Shown here: one piece after another, positions 261-64,000 of the stretch
How positions within the stretch are numbered: position 1 is the first letter of the stretch
Layout: every line of letters begins with the position of its first letter
Assembly: GCF_030684315.1 (NCBI RefSeq)
Contig: NC_081365.1
Span: 34,251,394-34,315,393 of the forward strand
Source of the DNA: Stegostoma tigrinum
Lineage: Eukaryota
Length of the DNA: 64,000 nt
Direction: 5' to 3'
The notes under the pieces: generated by a model
Told to the model about the DNA's origin: nothing
Databases searched by the model: none
Seen by the model: only the letters and a program-made list of their open reading frames with translations
Position numbers and translations under genes: made by a program

Positions 261-1404
261 TTCTCGATGCTTTTGGAGAGGTTTACATTTCCAGATGGCT
301 TTGACAGTTCCAAGGAGTTTATGCATTTTTTACATACAATTTCTCCATGGAACAATCCCAAAGAATACTTACTGTTGCTCTTTCTGCTCAAAAGGATACC
401 TGTCCCTAACCCTAAAGTATTCTTGAACTTCATCCCAAGGTCTCCGGGAGCCATAACCACATCATTATTTCAGCTCTTCAAAGAGATATCCACACCATGC
501 AAAGAAAAAGAAATGCACTGAGAATTGATTTTACTTGTTCCAGACAGCAGGGACCCCACAATCTGATTAGAGTAGATGCAGTTGATTATTTAAATAGCTA
601 GCTGCCTCTCTGAGTCTCACATGCATACGTACCATGCTACCCTGTCTCTACCCGCTCCAAAAATAGGAAGCACCAGTTATGGGGGCTCGATGTAAGATTT
701 CAGATGATTCCGCCATGGTGAAAATCTGGGCCCCAGCCTCAAAGCAGAGTACTTGTTGATAGAACAGATGTTATGAGTTCTTCACTGTTTCTTGACTGGA
801 CATTCTGATGGCTCTCTTGACAAGTGAGCTACAAGAATAACAAACCACCTCAGAATGTGAAGTGCACTAGCTGTTAGACATTTTCTGGGGCACAAGAAGA
901 AATTAAGTAGAATGCTAACAGTGACACCCAAAGTAGCTTAATGTAAAATAACAATCTTTTGATGGTTAGAACAAAACATGGAATTTTTTTAGATTTCTAA
1001 GCTTTTAATTATCCTTTAGATCAACAGTCTATTAAAAATTTCAGATTTACAGCATTTCTTAAAATAAATATTGAGAATTTCATTTTGTTTTATTGCTACA
1101 AATTCAACTACCTCTGCACTTTCAGTTATTCTTCCAATTTGGTAATGCCTCTATTTTCATCACTCCTACCTGATAATTGTTGTCTTCTTTCATTGACAGT
1201 GATGTCATGTTTTGTTTACATTTGCAAACTTAAAATAAATTTCCACAGGGCTTCTTTTCTTAAAATTCATTTTGGTTCATCATTTCTGTTCTTGTAGAAT
1301 GCTATACTTAAAAAAGAAGAGGTTTCGACTGTTGATTTCAAGATGAGACTCCTAAGCATAATTCTGACTTTTTCCTCAGTGAAGATAGTGGTATCAATTG
1401 GCAA

Positions 1405-2900
1405 TTAAAACAGAGAACGTTGGAAACACTCCGCAGGTCATGCAGCAGTTACGTCAAGAGAAACATTTCACGTTTCAAGTCTGTGACCTTTCATCAGAAC
1501 TGAGAAAAGTTAGAAGTGCTGAACAAACAAAAGAGGGAGGGATGGGCTGAAGGATAAAAAAACTGGAAAGTGAGGACTTGACAACTCCAATTATGTTTTT
1601 CAGAGGGCATATGAGAGCATGATATAGAACATACACGGTTCAGGGCCCTAACAGTGATGATGGAGGATGTGGTGCCATCTACTTTCAGAAGACCAAAAGC
1701 AGACTGGGCAATTATACAACACTTGCCTTCAGTATGCATGCATGACCCCAAGCTTCCTGTTGCCTGTCATTCGTACGTTGACCTTTTCCACTCTTAGCTT
1801 ACTGCAGTGTTCGAATGAACCTCAATGCAAACTTGAGGAACCGTAACTCATCTTTCAACTGTGTGTTTTATAGTCAGATCATAACCTCTGTCCCCATTTA
1901 GTTTTGTGTATATTTTTGCTTTTTACTTGTCTCATTGCCAGTTCCTTTGATTTTCTACTGTGAAATACCTTTAATTTTTCCTTCTACCCAATCACAGACC
2001 TCCTAGTTTGTTATTCTTCCAAACTATTCTGCTTTCTAAAATGCTGTTGTGTTCTAACTTTACTCAGTTCTGATGAAAGCCAACAGACCTGAAATGTTGG
2101 GCAGAATTTTACAAACACAGTGCGTGGACCACTTGGCTCATGAAGGAAAGTTAGCTGGAAGGCAACATGCTCCTTTAAAACCCACCCTGTAGCCATGATC
2201 CACTGCAGGTGGACTAAATTAACAGATAGTGTGACTTCTCCACTTGGGATTAAGATCTGCTGTCACTAATCTGATTGCCCAACCGTTCTACCACTCCCTG
2301 TAGTACTAGAACTCAACAGTGGGAACAGCGATAAGAAGCCTACAGAAGATTGGAAAAGTAGTTGCTGGGGCTTTAGGGCAAACAAGGGATCCCAGAGCCA
2401 GGGAGGCAGAAGAGGGCAAATTCTATCAGCTGAGAGTGTGGAAGGAACGGTTGGAGGGCAACCTAGAGGAGTGCCTTTGTTGCACATAGTGCATTCCCTG
2501 AATAAGGTGCCATTCCCCTTCCTTCCTGACTTAATTCATGGAGGTCATTGAAAATGATCTGGTCAGTCCTACCCGAATGCCTGGGCCATTCATCCTGTAG
2601 CTTCAGCAGTGTATAATTCATGTCAAATAGGCTTGTTAACAAGGCTACTTGACCTTTAATCGCTCAGTTAAATATGGCAGATATGTAGCTGATTTCAGTG
2701 CCTGCTTAGCATATTATCAGAATGAAGTCAGAGGTGAGTGAGCTAGCCGCCCAGACTATTTTATATGCCTTCCTCTGCAGAAAATAGACCTGATAAAGAA
2801 ATGTAAAATCCACCTCATTAACTCCACAGATACAGTCAATTTGGCTGTATGTTTCCAGCATTCCAGATCTTCAGCATCCTCAGTATTTTGCTTTTGCATT
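1405..2900 (+). mobile_element. Penelope-like element remnant (GIY-YIG C-terminus plus inverted and direct pLTR), split by a MITE
   Basis: ~1755-1870 reads PVACH..LLQCSNEPQCKLEEP*LIFQL, like the PLE endonuclease end. Inverted pLTR at ~1405-1520; direct pLTR at ~2030-2098 resumes at 2817. Confidence 0.7.
2099..2816. mobile_element. Putative MITE (PIF/Harbinger-like ends)
   Basis: Imperfect TIRs GGGCAGAATTTTAC / GTAAAATCCACCTC; 3-bp flanks GTT/ATT; cleanly interrupts a pLTR. Confidence 0.5.
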
Positions 2901-3364: not shown

Positions 3365-4030
3365 GCAGGGTAACCTTGTTATGGGATGGATGATCCAAAT
3401 GTCTTAATTAATGATTCAGAGGCAGAGTTCAAATCCCACTATGGAAGCTGAGGAATTCAAGTTCAGTTAATTAATTAATCATGGATGACAAAACTAATGT
3501 GATTCATGTTGTTCTTGATTATACAAGATAATAAAACCTAAGTGAAGAGAAATCAGAGTTAATGTTTTGGGTCCAATGATCCTTCCTCAGAATTTATTTC
3601 TCCTCACAGATTCTACCACTCCTGCTGAGCTTTTCCAGCAACTTCTGTTTTTGTTTCTAATTTACAGCATCGGTTTTTATTATAAAACCACCTCTGGTTC
3701 ACTGATGTCCTTTAAGAGGACATCCTCACCCAGTTTAACAACTCTGGATTCCAGGTCCTTAGCAATGCAGTTAATGTTTAACTGGCCTCTAAAATTCAGG
3801 CCACTCAGTTTCAAACTACTTGACGTATCATAACTACTGCAAAACCTGTGAGAAGAATACGATCAACAGAGGCATGCAACAATGATCTAGGAACTGGGTT
3901 TGGACATGAGAATGGCACATGACTGAAGTAATTCAAGAGGTGGCTCACCACCACTTACTTGAGGACATTTTGGGATATGCAATAATTTCTGAGTTGCCAG
4001 TGACGATTCACATCCATTGAATGAATAAAG
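3365..4030 (+). mobile_element. Degenerate tRNA-headed SINE/LINE deletion derivative
   Basis: B-box-like GAGTTCAAATCCC; body homologous to 53240 and 61480; 3' tail homologous to 62285-62385. Confidence 0.65.
3539..3681. mobile_element. Penelope pLTR palindrome fragment nested in SINE
   Basis: Minus strand reads TTCTGAGGAAGGATCATTGGACCCAAAACATTAACTCTG (decayed hammerhead core); flanked by ATAAAACC at 3531 and 3682. Confidence 0.6.
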
Positions 4031-6377: not shown

Positions 6378-6759
6378 GTTGAGGTTGGTTGCCTCGTCAA
6401 GTTGGTTTGTTGTTTTGCAGGTGTTTCATTACCGTGCTGGGTAACATCCTCAGTGCAGCCTCTGATGAAGCATCGGTGTGTTTTCCTGCCTGTTTTTAAA
6501 CTCTGGGATCCATTGAGCTGGATTACCTCACTTCCAGTTTTCCTTCATAGTGGAGTGTCTATGGGGTCGAGTTCTATGTGTTTATTCAATGTATCCCAGA
6601 GTTTAAAAACCAGGTGAGAAAACACACCGATATTTCATCGGAGGATGCGCTGAGGTTGTTACCGAGCACGGTAATGAAACGCCTGCAAACCAGCTCAGCA
6701 AGCCAATCAACCTCAACACCCACAACCCGAGCTACAGATCTACTCCAAAACCTTAGAGA
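6378..6759. mobile_element. Penelope-derived inverted-pLTR element with hammerhead-like cores
   Basis: Inverted arms ~6378-6510 / ~6594-6717; spacer on - reads NKHIELDPI (Penelope ORF end); TSD CATGTAC(G/A)AAGCT at 6365-6377 and 6760-6772. Confidence 0.85.
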
Positions 6760-35444: not shown

Positions 35445-35792
35445 GTGCTTTCCAGTCCTCTGGGACCTTCCCTGACTCTAGTGATTCCTGGAAGATCACC
35501 ACTAATGCTTCCACTATTTGTTCAGCCATCTCCTTTAGAACTCTGGGGTAGAGTCCATCTGGTCCAGGTGAATTGTCCACCTTCAGGCCTATCAGTTTTA
35601 CTAGTACCTTTTCCTTGGTGATGGCCACTATATTCAGCTCTGCCCCCTGACTCTCTTGAATTTTTGAGAGATTACTTGTGTCTTCCACTGTGAAGACTGA
35701 CACAAAGTAATTATTCAGTTCCTCAGCCACTTGCTCCTAAGATGCTGCTTTGGCCTGCTGTGTTCATTCAGCTCCACACTTTGTTATCTCAG
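35445..35792. mobile_element. CR1 RT fragment (-) fused to half of a pLTR palindrome
   Basis: ELNNYFVSVFT..SPGPDGLYPRVLKE..VPEDWK; 35732-35792 matches the right arm of 63416-63638. Confidence 0.8.
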
Positions 35793-38731: not shown

Positions 38732-38815
38732 TCAGCGACGAGGGTGTGGAGGGACAGCTGGTAATGGCTGCATTTGCAGCTGGTCATATGTGTCTTGCGT
38801 AGCTGTACTCAGTCC
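38732..38815 (-). CDS. CD247: CD247 (CD3 zeta) last coding exon
   Basis: ttttgcag|GLSTATQDTYDQLQMQPLPAVPPHPRR*; matches human [21 protein letters not shown]. Confidence 0.96.
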   Translation of the reverse strand, partial: GLSTATQDTYDQLQMQPLPAVPPHPRR

Positions 38816-54553: not shown

Positions 54554-57454
54554 TCAAATTTCTGTGACCATATGCATGTCCAGCAGTCTCTTAAATGACC
54601 CCAATGACCTTGCTTCCACAACTGCTGCTGGCAACGCATTCCATGCTCTCACAACTCTCTGTGTAAAGAACCTGCCTCTGACATCCCCTCTATACTTTCC
54701 ACCAACCAGCTTAAAACTATGACCCCTCGTGCTAGCCATTTCTGCCCTGGGAAATAGTCTCTGGCTATCGACTCTATCTATGCCTCTCATTATCTTGTAT
54801 ACCTCAATTAGGTCCCCTCTCCTCCTCCTTTTCTCCAATGAAAAGAGACCGAGCTCAGTCAACCTCTCTTCATAAGATAAGCCCTCCAGTCCAGGCAGCA
54901 TCCTGGTAAACCTCCTCTGAACCCTCTCCAAAGCATCCACATCTTTCCTATAATAGGGCGCCCAGAACTGGACGCAGTATTCCAAGTGCGGTCTAACCAA
55001 AGTTTTATAGAGCTGCAACAAGATCTCACGACTCTTAAACTCAATCCCCCTGTTAATGAAAGCCAAAACACCATATGCTTTCTTAACAACCCTGTCCACT
55101 TGGGTGGCCGTTTTAAGGGATCTATGTATCTGCACACCAAGATCCCTCTGTTCCTCCACGCTGCCAAGAATCCTATCCTTAATCCTGTACTCAGCTTTCA
55201 AATTCGACCTTCCAAAATGCATCACCTCGCATTTATCCAGGTTGAACTCCATCTGCCACCTCTCAGCCCATCTCTGCATCCTGTCAATGTCCCGCTGCAG
55301 CCTACAACAGCCCTCTACACTGTCAACGACACCTCCGACCTTTGTGTCGTCTGCAAACTTGCTGACCCATCCTTCAATTCCCTCGTCCAAGTCATTAATA
55401 AAAATTACAAACAGTAGAGGCCCAAGGACAGAGCCCTGTGGAACCCCACTCACCACTGACTTCCAGGCAGAATATTTTCCTTCTACTACCACACGCTGTC
55501 TTCTGTTGGCCAGCCAATTCTGTATCCAAGCAGCTAAGTTCCCCTGTATCCCATTCCTCCTGACCTTCTGAATGAGCCTTCCATGGGGAACCTTATCAAA
55601 TGCCTTACTGAAGTCCATATACACCACATCCACAGCTCGACCCTCATCAACCTTACTAGTCACATCCTCAAAAAACTCGATAAGGTTTGTAAGGCATGAC
55701 CTACCCCTCACAAAGCCGTGTTGACTGTATTTGATCAAGCCATGCTCTTCCAGATGGTCATAAATCTTATCCCTCAGAATCCTTTCTAACACCTTGCAGA
55801 CGACAGACGTGAGACTTACCGGTCTATAATTGCCGGGGATTTCCCTATTTCCTTTCTTGAAGAGAGGAATTACATTTGCCTCTCTCCAGTCCTCAGGTAC
55901 GACTCCAGTGGAGAGCGAGGATGCAAAGATCTTCGCAAGTGGCGAAGCAATTGCATTTCTCGCTTCCCAAAGCAGCCGAGGACAAATCTGATCCGGGCCT
56001 GGCGACTTGTCAATCTTAATGTTTGACAAAATTTTCAGTACATCAGCTTCCTCTATCTCTATCCATTCCAGCATGCACACCTGCTCTTCAAAGGTTTCAT
56101 TCACTACACAGTTTGTTTCTTTCGTAAAGACAGAAGCAAAAAACTCATTTAGGGCTTCCCCTACCTCCTCAGGCTCCACACACAAGTTCCCTATGCTATC
56201 CCTGATCGGCCCTACTCTTTCTTTGACCATTCTCTTATTCCTCACGTAAGTGTAAAATGCCTTTGTGTTTTCCCGGATTCCTTCTGCCAAGCCTTTCTCG
56301 TGCCCCCTCCTGGCTCTCCTCAGACCATTTTTGAGCTCCTTCCTTGCCTGCATGTAATCCTCTCTAGCTGAACTTGACCCTAGCTTCCTCCACCTTATGT
56401 AAGCTACCTTCTTCCTTTTCACTAGAAGCTCCACCGCTCTCGTCATCCAAGGTTCCTTTATCTTACCCCTTCTTGCCTGTCTCAGAGGGACATATTTACT
56501 CATCACTCCCAACAACTGTTCCTTAAACCATCTCCACATGTCTATAGTTCCCTTACCATGGAACAACTGCTCCCAGTCCATGCTTCCTAACTCGTGTCTA
56601 ATCGCATCATAGTTTCCTCTTCCCCAATTAAATATCCTCCCATTCTGCCTAATCCTCTCCTTCTCCATAGCTATGTAGAATGAGAGAGTGTTATGGTCAC
56701 TATCACCAAAATGCTCTCCCACCACAAGATCTGATACCTGCCCCGGCTCGTTTCCGAGCACCAAGTCTAGAATGGCCTCTCCCCTCGTCGGCCTGTCAAC
56801 GTACTGCGTTAGGAAACCCTCCTGAACACACCTTACAAAAACAGCTCCATTCAAATCTTCTGCTCGAAGGAGGTTCCAATCAATATTAGGAAAGTTAAAG
56901 TCACCCATTACAACAACCCTACTGCGTCCACACTTTTCCAAAATCTGTCGACCTATGCTTTCTTCAATCTCCCTGCTGCTATTGGGGGGCCTGTAGTAAA
57001 CCCCTAACGAGGTGACTACTCCCTTGCTGTTCCTAATTTCCACCCATACTGACTCAGTAGGCAGATCTTCCTCGACAATGGAAGCTTCTGTAGCTGTGAT
57101 ACCCTCTCTGATTAGTAGTGCTACACCCCCTCCTCTTTTTCCCCCCTCCCTATTCTTTTTAAATGTTCTAAACCCTGGAACATCCAGCAACCATTCCTGC
57201 CCATGAGAAACCCATGTCTCTGTTATGGCCGCAACATCATAGCACCAGGTACTGATCCATGCTCTAAGTTCATCACTTTTATTCCTGATACTCCTTGCAT
57301 TAAAGCAAACACACTTTAACCGATCCCTTGGTTCCTTCCCAGGAAAATCCTTCCCACTAGCTGGTCTACCTCTTGCTACTGCCTCACCTGCATCAACGCT
57401 CACCTCTGGTATACAGCTCAGGTTCCCACCCCCCTGCCATACTAGTTTAAACCC
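54554..57454 (-). CDS. CR1 ORF2: APE endonuclease + reverse transcriptase, intact, no AUG start
   Basis: FNARSI, ITETW, YYRPP, MGDFNFP, DSDH, YMDFSKAFDKVPH, GVPQGSVLGP, KFADD. The ORF-track start at 57562 is TTG; the first ATG (56908) lies inside the EN domain. Confidence 0.95.
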   Translation of the reverse strand, partial: GFKLVWQGGGNLSCIPEVSVDAGEAVARGRPASGKDFPGKEPRDRLKCVCFNARSIRNKSDELRAWISTWCYDVAAITETWVSHGQEWLLDVPGFRTFKKNREGGKRGGGVALLIREGITATEASIVEEDLPTESVWVEIRNSKGVVTSLGVYYRPPNSSREIEESIGRQILEKCGRSRVVVMGDFNFPNIDWNLLRAEDLNGAVFVRCVQEGFLTQYVDRPTRGEAILDLVLGNEPGQVSDLVVGEHFGDSDHNTLSFYIAMEKERIRQNGRIFNWGRGNYDAIRHELGSMDWEQLFHGKGTIDMWRWFKEQLLGVMSKYVPLRQARRGKIKEPWMTRAVELLVKRKKVAYIRWRKLGSSSAREDYMQARKELKNGLRRARRGHEKGLAEGIRENTKAFYTYVRNKRMVKERVGPIRDSIGNLCVEPEEVGEALNEFFASVFTKETNCVVNETFEEQVCMLEWIEIEEADVLKILSNIKIDKSPGPDQICPRLLWEARNAIASPLAKIFASSLSTGVVPEDWREANVIPLFKKGNREIPGNYRPVSLTSVVCKVLERILRDKIYDHLEEHGLIKYSQHGFVRGRSCLTNLIEFFEDVTSKVDEGRAVDVVYMDFSKAFDKVPHGRLIQKVRRNGIQGNLAAWIQNWLANRRQRVVVEGKYSAWKSVVSGVPQGSVLGPLLFVIFINDLDEGIEGWVSKFADDTKVGGVVDSVEGCCRLQRDIDRMQRWAERWQMEFNLDKCEVMHFGRSNLKAEYRIKDRILGSVEEQRDLGVQIHRSLKTATQVDRVVKKAYGVLAFINRGIEFKSREILLQLYKTLVRPHLEYCVQFWAPYYRKDVDALERVQRRFTRMLPGLEGLSYEERLTELGLFSLEKRRRRGDLIEVYKIMRGIDRVDSQRLFPRAEMASTRGHSFKLVGGKYRGDVRGRFFTQRVVRAWNALPAAVVEARSLGSFKRLLDMHMVTEI

Positions 57455-58059
57455 TCTCGAACTACTCGAGCAAACCTTCCACCCAGGACATTGGTCCCCT
57501 TCCAGTTCAGATGCAACCCGTCCTTCTTGTACAGGTCCCACCTTCCCCAGAAGGCATCCCAATTATCAACATATCTGAAGCCCTCCCTCCTACACCAGCT
57601 GCGTAGCCACGTGTTCAGCTGCGCCCGCTCCCTGTTCCTCACCTCGCTATCTCGTGGCACCGGTAGTAAACCAGAGAACACTACTCTGTTCGTCCTGCTC
57701 TGCAGCTTCCATCCTAACTCCCTGAAATCACTTTTTATATCCTCAAACCTATTTCTGGCTATATCATTTGTGCCAATATGTAACACGATTTCTGGCTGTT
57801 CACCCTCCCCTTTCAGAACTTTATACACCCGATCGGAGACGTCCCGGACCCTGGCACCAGGGAGGCAACATACCTTCCGGGAATCCCGATCTTGCCCACA
57901 AAATCTCCTGTCGATTCCCCTAACTATCGAGTCCCCTACCACGAGTACTTTTCTATTCTGCCCCCTTCCCTTCTTTGCCACAGTGTCAGGCTCAGTGCCA
58001 GAGAACTGACTACTATGGCTTTCCTCTGGTAGGTCAACCCCCCCAGCAGTATCCAAAAC
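57442..58059 (-). CDS. CR1 ORF1 C-terminal SGNH/GDSL esterase domain (N-terminus lost)
   Basis: VVGDS, LPGA, HIGTND and DGLH blocks all intact. Confidence 0.92.
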   Translation of the reverse strand, partial: VLDTAGGVDLPEESHSSQFSGTEPDTVAKKGRGQNRKVLVVGDSIVRGIDRRFCGQDRDSRKVCCLPGARVRDVSDRVYKVLKGEGEQPEIVLHIGTNDIARNRFEDIKSDFRELGWKLQSRTNRVVFSGLLPVPRDSEVRNRERAQLNTWLRSWCRREGFRYVDNWDAFWGRWDLYKKDGLHLNWKGTNVLGGRFARVVREGLN

Positions 58060-60705: not shown

Positions 60706-62387
60706 TCTAAAAGGAATTAAACTGTTGGACAATCCAGTATCAACATAGGCACTGGAAATGATAACAGGTAAGTGCTCCTTACTAACATTTAGGGATTCGT
60801 GCCAAAATTGGGGGTTAGTCAAGCAAAAGCCTGACAGTCATATTCATGGAATCATCTTACTGAGAAATTCCCTAGGCAACACCATCACCATGCCTGGGTA
60901 TATCTTGTCCTACCAGTAAGGCAGACCATCCAGTTGTATGAAGTGAGGGGTTGGGGAGGGGGTGATGCCCTGGGTGTTCTCAACATTAATTTCAGATCTC
61001 ATAACATCCTATGGTATCATGTCAAATATGGGCAAGGGAACCTCTTGCTGATCACCACCTACCACCTCCCACTCCCCAGCTGATGAGTCAATGTGTCTCC
61101 ATGTTGAACAACACTTGGAAGAAGCATGAGGATAGCAGGGGGATAGAATATGCTCTGGATGGGTGACTTCAGTGTCCATCACCGAGGGTATCTCGGCAAT
61201 GCCAATATGACTAAGCTGGCCCAGTCCTAAAGGATATACCTGCTGGACGGAGCATGCAGCAGAAATGGAGGAAACCAACAAGAGGAAAGCTATTTGACCT
61301 AATTCTCACCTGTTGCATACATGTCAGTCCATGACATTATTAGGAAGCGTAACCATTGCTCAATCCTTGTGGAAATGCAATCCTGTCTTCATATTGAGAA
61401 TATCTTCCATTGTTTTATGCTAAATGGGATCAACTTGAAACTTATTGTACAACTCAAAACAACGAATCCATGTGGCTGTATGGGGACATGATGGCCTAGT
61501 GGTATTATCACCAGACTGTTAATCCAGAGAGCCAGATAACATTCAAGGTGCCAGGGTTTGAATCATGCCACAGATGATGGTGGAATTCGAATTCATTTAA
61601 AAAAAAATCTGGAATTAGGAATCCAATGATGACACTGAATCCATTGTCAATTGTCAGAAGAACCCATCTGTTTCACTAATGTCCTTTAGGGAAGGAAACC
61701 GCCATCCTTGCCTGGTCAGGCCTACATGTGACTCCAGACCCACAGCAATGTGGTTGACTCTGAATTGTCCTCTGGGCAATTAGGGATGGGCAATAAATGC
61801 TGTCTAGCCAGTGAAGCCCTCATCCCGTTAATGAATAAAAAAAAGTTCTGGGCCATCAACAGTAGCAGATTGTATTCAATCACAGATTGTAATTTCATTT
61901 TCCCCACTGTACTATTATCAACAAGCCAAAGGATCAACACAAGAAAGCATACCAAGAGAAGCATCAAACATACCTACAAAGGAACTGTCAACCTGTCAAA
62001 CATCCACTCCTTCCACCACTAATGCTCAGTAACAGCCGTGTGTACTATCTACAAATGCACTGCAGAAATTCACCAAAGATCTTTAGGCAGAACTTCCCAA
62101 ACCCACAAACTCTTCCATCCTGAAGGACAAGGGCAGCAGATACATGGGAACACCGCCAACTTCAAGTTTCCCTCCAAGCCACTCACCATCCTGACTTGGA
62201 AATATATGAGCATTCCTTTAAAATCCTGGAATTCCCTCCCTACGGGCATTATCAGTCATCCCACAGCAGGTGGACTGTAGTGCTTCAAGAGGGCAGCTCA
62301 CAAACATGTTGTCAAGGACAACTAGGGATGAGCAATAAATGCTGACCAGCCAGCGATGCCCACATCCCGCAAATGAATTTAAAAAAC
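60706..62387 (+). mobile_element. CR1-group LINE (same family as 29840) with EN domain, RT deleted, 3' tail present
   Basis: GFVPKLG..LVKQKPD, TMPGY, LWMGDFSVHH, PTRGKLFDLILT; jumps to C-terminus and tail at ~61995; a 5' piece lies at ~60120-60160, before the CR1 insertion. Confidence 0.75.
61480..61843 (+). mobile_element. tRNA-headed SINE nested in its partner LINE
   Basis: TGGCCTAGTGG A box, GGTTTGAATC B box, same body and tail as 53240. Confidence 0.9.
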
Positions 62388-62836
62388 CTGGTGAAGATAC
62401 AACATAGGATAAGTTGCATGCCAAACCACATAAGCATAAAGTGATCCCACAACCATCTCATTAGATGCATGTTCTGCAGTCTTGAACATCTAATTGTGAA
62501 CGGTGGTGGACAATTACACAACTGACAGGAGGAAAAAGCCAGTTTCAGTTTGCTGTTACTTCATTCTTGACAAAACACTTCAGTCATTTCATTTTGAAAC
62601 AAAAAGGGTTTGTAGAACAATGGATGGGAATTGGTGAAGTGATTTTTATTCATTAAGAGAGAGAAAATAGTGAAAAATACAGATCCATTTCCAGCTTCTT
62701 CAGAGAATACGGATGTGTATTTGTCAACATTTGCATTACTTTTCTTCCAATTTATTTTCAGCAATTGCTATTACAAATTATGCATTTAACTAAGCATTTT
62801 CCTACTTTCACCTGAAGCCATATCCCAAATAGTGAG

Positions 62837-63040
62837 ATAACAAAATGTGGAGCTGGATGAACACAGCAGGCCAAGCAGCATCTCAGGAGCACAAAAGCTG
62901 ACGTTTCAGGCCTAGACCCTTCATCAGAGGTCTAGGCCCAAAATGTCAGCTTTTGTGCTCCGGAGATGCTGCTTGGCCTGCTGTGTTCATCCAGCTCCAC
63001 ACTTTGTTACCTCGGATTCTCCAGCAACTGCAGTTCCCAT
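62837..63040. mobile_element. Penelope pLTR palindrome, copy 1
   Basis: ~85-bp inverted arms plus right-side extension; TSD TATCCCAAATAGTGAG at 62821-62836 and 63041-63056. Confidence 0.9.
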
Positions 63041-63191
63041 TATCCCAAATAGTGAGTACCATTTGCAGCAAAGGTTAATGATTTGTGACTGACAAGTTAA
63101 CTCACCCAACACAATGTAAAGTGTGAATCTCAGTATGCTTGCATCTTACAGCCTTCAAAAGTGGTGGCAAAAAATATTTTCAATCATTGTT

Positions 63192-63353
63192 AGAGATAAC
63201 AAGGTGTAGAGCTGGATGAACACAGCAGGCTAGAGCAGGAAAGCTGACGTTTTGGGTCTGGACCCTTTTCTGAAGAGGTGCGTGTGTGCTCATCCAGCTC
63301 TACACCTTGTTATCTCAGATTCTCCAGCATCTGCAGTTCCTACTATCTCTGAA
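63192..63353. mobile_element. Penelope pLTR palindrome, copy 2 (internally deleted)
   Basis: TSD TTC(A/G)ATCATTGTT at 63179-63191 and 63354-63366. Confidence 0.85.
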
Positions 63354-63415
63354 TTCGATCATTGTTGCTGTGTTATCCATTTTATTAGATCTGACCCAAA
63401 TCAGGATGCTATTGT

Positions 63416-63638
63416 AACAAAATGCGGAGCTGGATGAACACAGCAGGCCAAGCTGCATCTTAGGAGCACAAAAGCTGACGTTTCGGGCCTAGACCCTTCA
63501 TCAGATGATTTTTCTGATGAAGGGTCTAGGCCCGAACCGTCAATTTTTGTGCTCCTAAGATGCTGCTTGGCCTGCTGTGTTCATCCAGCCCCACACTTTG
63601 TTATCTCGGATTCTCCAGCATCTGCAGTTCCCATTATC
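63416..63638. mobile_element. Penelope pLTR palindrome, copy 3
   Basis: ~90-bp inverted arms; TSD TCAGGATGCTATTGT at 63401-63415 and 63639-63653. Confidence 0.92.
63472..63506 (-). ncRNA. Minimal hammerhead ribozyme core motif
   Basis: CUGAUGA-A-GGGU(CUAG)GCCC-GAAA-CG-UC^AGCU; core intact but the 5' strand of helix I is missing in this copy. Confidence 0.6.
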
Positions 63639-63707
63639 TCAGGATGCTATTGTCCCTGTGATATACAAAGAATAGCCAATTTAAAGAAAATGTAAACCGT
63701 TACTTAC

Positions 63708-63776
63708 TTGATATTGGTCTTCTGTATTTGGTTGGTTTGCAGGAAGATCTCCATGTTTTCCTTTTACTTTGGTCAG
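63708..63776 (-). CDS. CD247: CD247 exon (exon 3 equivalent, 69 nt); signal/TM exons lie beyond the window
   Basis: ttttgttttcaaag|LTKVKGKHGDLPANQPNTEDQYQ|gtaagt; basic juxtamembrane stretch plus first Tyr of ITAM1. Confidence 0.88.
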
Positions 63777-64000
63777 CTTTGAAAACAAAATGTAAAGGAG
63801 ACATTGCACAAAGTAAATTTCATTTACTAATCCTGCTATATATCACTAATATCACTCATTAAAATAACCAGCAATATTCTCATGCGACAAACTAATTTGT
63901 TTGTTATGTAATGAGAAATTAGTTCATATGTGGCCAGTAGGGTGTCCTGAAAGCACAAAAGAAAAGATTGACCATTCACAGAATAACCTGCACCCGCAAG

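Follow-up and report, generated by a model that had tools for sequence, protein, structure and literature searches.

Endonuclease-bearing (EN+) Penelope-like elements (PLEs) leave complex insertions which, in the accessible portions of two published accounts (PMC8557442; PMC3846280), comprise an inverted 5′-truncated copy, a tail of 30-40 bp at one end and a target-site duplication (TSD). The origin of these inverted and tandem structures is called undefined in the portions of the PLE literature available. For the PLE of the anole, the accessible text of Frangieh et al. (PMC11167929) describes a protein, predicted to form a dimer, that cuts and extends both target strands and starts reverse transcription at two sites bounding the tail; its endonuclease prefers ATT, and the anole ribozyme needed protein. 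Concerning the minimal hammerheads of metazoan PLEs, Cervera and de la Peña (PMC4209133, as far as its accessible text goes) found that monomers did not cleave and that dimers did so at a low level; they also reported a helix I of only 2 bp in D. virilis. At the protein level, the available part of PMC8557442 assigns a CX2-5CxxC linker with internal nuclease cysteines to Neptune and Nematis and not to Poseidon, the linker being absent in Penelope/Poseidon. Finally, non-LTR retrozymes have been reported in one chondrichthyan, according to the accessible text of a preprint (bioRxiv 10.64898/2026.07.22.740005). No title dealing with PLE twin priming, with the PLE hammerheads of sharks or with truncation at the ribozyme's cut came up in a literature search that had most subscription papers outside its scope.

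The locus studied here belongs to a stretch of 64,000 nt from the shark Stegostoma tigrinum, hereafter the window, and consists of three hairpins within 62821-63653 (Table 1), in an intron of CD247. A first-pass annotation had described them as three related hairpins with TSDs of 16, 13 and 15 bp and a one-sided tail, and this description holds: copies 1, 2 and 3 are inserts of 204, 162 and 223 bp, their inverted arms are 91-97% complementary, and in each the right arm carries ~30 extra nt. Arm positions are counted from the T before CUGAUGA, which is position 1. The hammerhead cores placed on the CD247 sense strand in copies 1 and 3 are indeed intact, while the one on the plus strand of copy 3 is disrupted, with GAAC in place of GAAA; copy 2, from an older subfamily than the other two, has no intact core. 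Elsewhere in the window, at 35732-35790 (plus strand), lies a fourth arm of the same family, single, tail-less, starting from position 38 and without an inverted partner.

Table 1. Features of the three hairpins and of the neighbouring exon (window coordinates), and the four insertions that pair a short with a long arm (block coordinates)
Feature	Position	Strand	Remarks
Left TSD, copy 1	62821-62836		16 bp, identical pair; up to 4 bases common with element end
Tail-less arm, copy 1	62837-62928	-	arm positions 0 to 92
Hammerhead core, copy 1	62927-62900	-	intact; CD247 sense strand
Tailed arm, copy 1	62929-63040	+	positions 11 to 122; tail ~63014-63040; without CUGAUGA
Right TSD, copy 1	63041-63056		16 bp
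Left TSD, copy 2	63179-63191		13 bp
Whole insert, copy 2	63192-63353		older subfamily
Tail-less arm, copy 2	~63193-63267	-	internal deletion, broken core
Tailed arm, copy 2	63285-63352	+	positions 64 to ~131
Right TSD, copy 2	63354-63366		13 bp, 1 mismatch
Left TSD, copy 3	63401-63415		15 bp, identical pair
Tail-less arm, copy 3	63416-63505	-	positions 1 to 90
Hammerhead core, copy 3	63504-63477	-	intact; CD247 sense strand
Head-to-head junction spacer, copy 3	63506-63512		7 nt
Tailed arm, copy 3	63513-63638	+	positions 1 to 126; tail ~63608-63638
Right TSD, copy 3	63639-63653		15 bp
CD247 exon after the transmembrane exon	63708-63776	-	69 nt; host context, outside the element
Mixed pairs	C24 71107, C24 94788, C1 49050, C33 9298		block coordinates

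The identity of the arm emerges from its longer copies. A genome search with the tailed arm of copy 3 gave 1192 candidates, of which the best 40 were scored and 30 retrieved; among these 30 loci, many arms extend upstream into a C-rich 3′ region and then into coding sequence for an RT thumb and a GIY-YIG domain, on the same strand as the arm. A protein search of the genome gave 93,374 candidates, of which the best 150 were scored and 20 taken for long open frames. Two of these loci are arm-ORF-arm tandems, with an arm on both sides of an open frame of 1178 aa (L155) or 1108 aa (L156), and a third (L157) has a frame of 1105 aa after a partial arm. The tandem unit of the element measures 3.6 kb, and the arm is its pLTR/tail. 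Profile matches to RVT_1 (E 9e-6) and GIY-YIG (E 0.004) are both below the Pfam cut-offs; the motifs YIDD and VYCIHC..C..YIG are plain, and the two domains follow each other, RT then GIY-YIG, in a single ORF. By eye, CIHCTRC can be recognised between VY and YIG in L155 and L156, followed by AEH and ANH, and the linker upstream of GIY-YIG reads CNRRKCYTC (CX4CxxC) in all the long copies shown. Judged by its sequence, the element is an EN+ PLE, with a C-terminal EN and a linker of the Neptune/Nematis type, and the hallmarks of such elements are all present: pLTRs from partial tandems, inverted truncated copies and a tail of 30-40 bp.

The first-pass annotation had expected the arm to be linked to full PLE ORFs, as is the case, and had regarded the hairpins as non-autonomous Penelope products. 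The Penelope derivation and the target-primed insertion stand; a separate non-autonomous lineage does not, the hairpins being instead independent truncations of an autonomous element. In other words, they are almost certainly independent 5′-truncated, head-to-head insertions of the 3′ end (pLTR) of a PLE. The AUG in the hammerhead core opens in all copies a frame of 13 codons (arm positions 5-46), which is closed by TGA or TAA depending on the subfamily, and the long frame starts beyond the tail and in a different phase; the short frame is possibly a regulatory upstream ORF.

The frequency of these insertions was estimated from a sample of 1.304 Mb, made up of the window plus 140 kb and of eleven further blocks of 100 kb each, twelve in all, of which ten were scanned first and two were added later. 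It contains 261 arms in 178 insertions, that is, ~136 insertions per Mb, in blocks picked by round coordinates rather than at random and with 5-25 insertions each; extrapolated to a genome of 3.2 Gb, this amounts to ~4x10^5 insertions and ~10^5 hairpins. Short hairpins account for 44 of the 178 insertions: about a quarter are reduced to 100-300 bp, a difference from the published EN+ PLE insertions, which the present ones otherwise resemble in their head-to-head arms, tail at one end, TSD and partial tandems forming pLTRs. Four triples within 1.2 kb, the CD247 cluster included, occur in the sample, and a Poisson model predicts ~860 such 830-bp windows genome-wide. Since hairpins are common throughout the genome, neither the cluster nor its position in CD247 needs a special explanation, and the emphasis initially placed on the cluster falls away.

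Such a high copy number could also suggest that the hairpins form a non-autonomous family, SINE-, retrozyme- or MITE-like, whose unit is copied by PLE proteins or by a transposase, and retrozymes have been reported as non-autonomous PLE derivatives (bioRxiv 10.64898/2026.07.22.740005, accessible text). The hairpins resemble them, as there described, in being short, pLTR-derived and endowed with type I hammerheads; retrozymes, however, are head-to-tail units copied as families, whereas the hairpins are head to head and each is unique. Of the short hairpins, 27 could be mapped, and no two of these agree in both arm ends and length; insert lengths run without a gap from 101 bp to >4 kb. The TSDs vary between 9 and 19 bp, with a mode of 14 bp (8-10 bp in the rotifer PLE examples given in the available literature) and one outlier of 36 bp in a local duplication; the TSD test was passed by unrelated flanks 3 times in 352. 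The ends, moreover, are not symmetric terminal repeats, and at the centres the arms meet through microhomology of a few bases or with short stretches of extra bases between them. Two specific candidates were rejected on this account. A non-LTR retrozyme should be built of head-to-tail repeats of a unit, each with its own hammerhead, and the three CD247 copies all have their arms head to head. A cut-and-paste MITE should have a short TSD of fixed length, a uniform size and terminal inverted repeats; TSDs vary, the 27 hairpins differ from each other and the tail is at one end only, which, together with the contiguity between the arm and the RT and GIY-YIG coding sequence, agrees with the first-pass annotation, where a MITE had been dismissed. 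Variable TSDs, continuous lengths and the uniqueness of each hairpin thus indicate that each one was built at insertion, and a non-autonomous family, already largely refuted within the sample, is very improbable. At the other end of the size range, four young insertions (L171, L172, L158 and L166) have inverted arms of 2.2-2.7 kb with 98-99.7% identity and persist as near-perfect palindromes.

The tail obeys a strict rule. The 3′ ends of 256 arm matches are bimodal, with ~99 at positions 88-99 and 118 at 124-128, and the two end points, ~93 and ~128, delimit a tail of 33 bases. From 60 rows of TSD-bounded pairs, 51 remained once 2 repeated pairings and 7 unclassifiable ends had been dropped, and 49 of these 51 combine one tailed and one tail-less arm. 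Two pairs are tailed on both sides, both doubtful (one has a 9-bp TSD and the other lies in a local duplication), and none is tail-less on both. A further 13 of 13 pairs in new loci are asymmetric, which brings the total to 62/64 (P 2e-16 against free choice); L011 is one more both-tailed case. The asymmetry is therefore near-absolute here, compared with the "often" or "optionally" found in the accessible text of PMC8557442 and PMC3846280. Both outer junctions share microhomology with the target (1.5 and 2.3 nt, against ~0.5 for shuffled TSDs) and may contain extra bases (7/31 and 12/34), and in the flanking target sequence, 3 nt outside each end of the TSD, purines are favoured in a mirror-image pattern. 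No stable stem-loop is predicted by folding at either of the two start sites (z 0.3 and 1.7).

To account for this arrangement, a mechanism can be proposed in which the protein of the element would nick both target strands ~14 bp apart, each target end would prime RT at one of two RNA start sites located 33 nt apart, and the two resulting short cDNAs would be joined head to head. Priming from both target ends should produce just the geometry seen here, with 3′ ends that point outward inside the TSD. Both arms would be cDNAs, usually from one RNA. All of this is read from finished insertions. In L1 twin priming, both target ends likewise prime, and the inverted 5′ part is joined by microhomology within a TSD of variable length; the two parts are non-overlapping and the second primer lands anywhere, whereas the arms of the present element are both copied from one region, starting at two fixed sites. 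The closest parallel is the anole Poseidon PAc (PMC11167929, accessible text), whose hammerhead also has an AUG where stem II begins and which also uses two RT start sites ~30 nt apart that bound the tail; in the present element, these sites lie ~65-100 nt 3′ of the cut site. The two differ in that the shark ORF has a CX4CxxC linker that Poseidon, the clade in which two-strand priming was observed in vitro, lacks, and in that the hammerhead AUG opens here only the 13-codon frame, the long frame starting after the tail.

A rather different route would start from one target-primed cDNA that folds back, or from an antisense template that primes itself, followed by EN trimming of one tail and by later, uneven deletion of the centre. 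Self-priming on an antisense template is favoured for the inverted junctions of rotifer PLEs in the available part of PMC3846280, and EN-mediated resolution or trimming has been proposed for the tail in that of PMC8557442. Both end points contain an ATTATC/TTATC word, which, given the ATT preference of the anole endonuclease, keeps nuclease trimming of the tail as a candidate. Arm lengths bear most directly on the choice. Among 55 pairs from the position-picked blocks, the tail-less arm is longer by >20 nt in 18 and the tailed arm in 7, while 27 are within 20 nt of each other and 3 could not be classed. In 18 of the 25 unequal pairs it is the tail-less arm that is longer, which it could not be if it were simply the tailed strand folded back and copied, short of a later deletion at the centre. 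If the centre of the palindrome were lost unevenly, either arm could likewise come out longer, yet the excess of the tail-less arm reaches 2.5 kb in copies that match the reference at 97-99% identity. The near-symmetry of some long pairs, with a loop of 1-3 nt in L156, speaks for this route; against it, in the 6 pairs of this kind the tail-less arm is longer in 3 and equal in 1. The likeness of the two outer junctions also counts against it.

Sequence relationships between arms are in part favourable to it, as they are to two cDNAs made from one RNA: the two arms of an insertion have derived bases in common at 16.6 per kb, compared with 5.8 for arms of different insertions. In terms of whole-arm identity, the closer arm is in another insertion for 6/14, with 1 tie, and subfamily-diagnostic sites disagree between the arms at 17/75 in L161 and 8/111 in L170, which suggests two templates or conversion in these insertions. 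Taken together, folding back of a single cDNA is distinctly unlikely. Twin priming is probable, and that the hairpins are independent truncated insertions of the PLE 3′ end, likely made by twin target priming, can be held with slightly more confidence.

The ribozyme moiety of the arm is well defined as a motif. In 1.104 Mb there are 98 hammerhead motifs, where three shuffles gave 1, 3 and 1, and helix III is CG or one of its CpG-decay forms in 93 of the 98; an Rfam scan of the locus gave no match to a hammerhead family, only hairpin miRNA models far below their gathering scores. The features of minimal type I hammerheads of metazoan PLEs, as given in the accessible text of PMC4209133, are all present, namely CUGANGA, an extra base before stem II, G10.1-C11.1 and a palindromic CG at 15.2-16.2, without a helix III loop. 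Helices I and II have 2 and 4 bp, compared with 4-5 and 7-8 bp in the Schistosoma motifs of the same source. Motif and column counts agree with the minimal hammerhead of the first-pass annotation, with its ACGU helix III and short helix I. The core columns vary by 0-5%, except for N7 (22%) and the CpG sites, and the first pair of helix I is U-A in 94/97 and 7/7 motifs of two families and A-U in 9/9 motifs of the third. Selection in the source elements is suggested by core columns that hardly vary, N7 excepted, and by a first helix I pair whose two bases both change from one family to another. Head-to-head arms of two other hammerhead-bearing families, presumed to be PLEs, are found in the window at ~1394-1500 (minus strand) with 2065-2100 (plus strand), at 3543-3670 and at ~6393-6750.

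Apart from the tail, the arms are characterised by the places where they stop. Pairs are both short in 28 cases, both long in 20 and mixed in 4 (P 8e-11), and the ends of long pairs lie within 25 nt of each other in 6/33, against 0.9 expected, which, like the shared derived bases, points to two cDNAs drawn from a single template. In all 4 mixed pairs the tailed arm is the short one, ending at 27-35, and the tail-less arm reaches 186-757 nt further upstream; none of them has the opposite arrangement. The small size of the hairpins would be explained if both cDNAs stopped at the same place near the hammerhead, be it the 5′ end of the RNA, a cleavage site or a stall. A first count with mixed references gave a second pile-up from position 22, which was rejected, as the ends at 22-24 are mostly older-subfamily arms mis-mapped on a mutated reference; the count was therefore redone on the younger subfamily only. 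Of its 138 arms, 54 have 5′ ends beyond -70, 8 at -70 to -6, 40 at -5 to 11, 8 at 12-29, 23 at 30-41, 4 at 42-53 and 1 beyond.

The hammerhead is predicted to cut at GUC^A, the bond 29|30, and the class at 30-41 has its mode at position 30 (7 arms). Its 23 ends compare with 6 and 4 in the adjoining 12-nt bins (P 0.002 and 0.0003 per arm, 0.009 and 0.002 per insertion), with bins and subfamily filter chosen once the data were known. In 29 loci selected only on the 3′ part of the arm, whose arms are included in the pooled count, ends fall at 29, 30, 30, 30, 32, 33, 38 and 41, and none at 17-28. Within the both-short pairs, both arms end at 24 or later in 8, both before 24 in 16, and 4 are mixed (P 4e-4). 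This pile-up is what run-off from cleaved RNA would give. Nevertheless, 4 of the 7 ends at position 30 are symmetric joins at a self-complementary AGCT, three arm ends at 27 lie upstream of the predicted cut, and a predicted 6-bp stem (positions 2-7 with 26-31), which competes with the hammerhead in the monomer, could stall RT nearly at the same position. The PAc study (PMC11167929) reports, in its accessible text, no RNA reads ending at the cut site, where the genomic arms pile up here. In vivo hammerhead cleavage may be the cause of the position-30 class, a possibility that we put forward tentatively. The larger peak at -5 to 11 may be either a transcription start or a stall at the 5′ edge of the ribozyme, and priming at a start-site copy near the 5′ end of the RNA is one economical reading of the short hairpins. 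In two other PLE families, represented by old copies mixed with cross-hits, one has, by eye, ends at the 5′ edge of the hammerhead and two 3′ end points.

With regard to the host gene, the transmembrane exon of CD247 is recognised by a PF11628 profile match (E 1.8e-12, minus strand) 1 kb past the end of the window, and the ITAM-bearing last exon lies at 38735-38815 (E 0.01, below the cut-off). A second PF11628 match in the genome, at G000:C59:9569577-9569660 (plus strand, L052), is probably the gene for the Fc receptor gamma chain. The intervening exon (Table 1), which we take to be exon 3 after the human numbering, has its splice donor GTAAGT at 63707 (minus strand), and 63708-63777 is covered exactly by two RNA-like contigs of a related organism. 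These contigs are swamped by paralogous copies, and A-to-G differences in them are uninformative on editing. The hairpins occupy the intron from 67 to 871 nt downstream of this exon, and several insertion junctions are spanned by contigs of the DNA runs X11 and X13, which argues against an assembly artefact, bearing in mind that these runs may be the source of the assembly itself. A CD247 intron also harbours, at 54554-57562 (minus strand), a LINE with an open frame of 1002 aa for an APE-type endonuclease and RT, presumably CR1/L2-like. At 61774-61844 and 62316-62386 (plus strand) of the window lie two copies, 83% alike, of a 71-nt repeat end followed by A-runs, which to us resembles the 3′ end of a shark SINE/LINE.

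The hairpins might be thought to regulate the splicing, editing or RNA stability of CD247, and to have been retained as a cluster for this reason. DsRNA hairpins had been announced ~70 nt from the donor; this is right for the start of the nearest element, copy 3 (~67 nt), and not for its paired stem, which begins only at ~100 nt, the tail being unpaired. The three hairpins together have a stable predicted fold (z -29.7), and each copy is predicted to form, in the CD247 pre-mRNA, a hairpin of 32-90 bp in which the ribozyme is buried, in line with the masking foreseen in the first-pass annotation. Proximity to the donor and stability of the fold speak for such a role; against it, hairpins of this kind occur roughly once every 30 kb in the genome, with the four triples within 1.2 kb already mentioned in 1.3 Mb, the copies have decayed in the ordinary way (their arms differ at 7, 3 and 1 non-CpG sites) and they come from two subfamilies. 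A role in CD247 regulation is consequently highly improbable. Since the predicted folds enclose the cores in long stems, ribozyme cleavage in the CD247 pre-mRNA is also unlikely, and from these folding models the copies are most likely inert within the gene.

As a locus, the cluster is of little weight, being three among ~10^5 similar stumps, and the hairpins are an ordinary product of a known class, whose inverted pLTR, tail, TSD and minimal hammerhead have already been published. What the genome sample adds is the near-exclusive tail on one arm, the fact that either arm can be the longer, the tendency of both arms to stop together and the piling of ends at the predicted cut. In annotation, such hairpins will pass for MITEs or, given their weak matches to Rfam miRNA models, for miRNA precursors, and much double-stranded RNA could potentially arise from them within introns. 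The genome holds enough young copies to test by counting both the origin of the inverted and tandem structures of PLEs and hammerhead cleavage. The most complete reading, in which a dimeric RNP would prime both strands at the two fixed start sites of one RNA and germ-line hammerhead cleavage would produce the position-30 class, is for now doubtful as a whole. If true, the inverted pLTR, the one-sided tail and the TSD would all be explained by a single step, and the shark genome would provide evidence for in vivo activity of the PLE minimal hammerhead.
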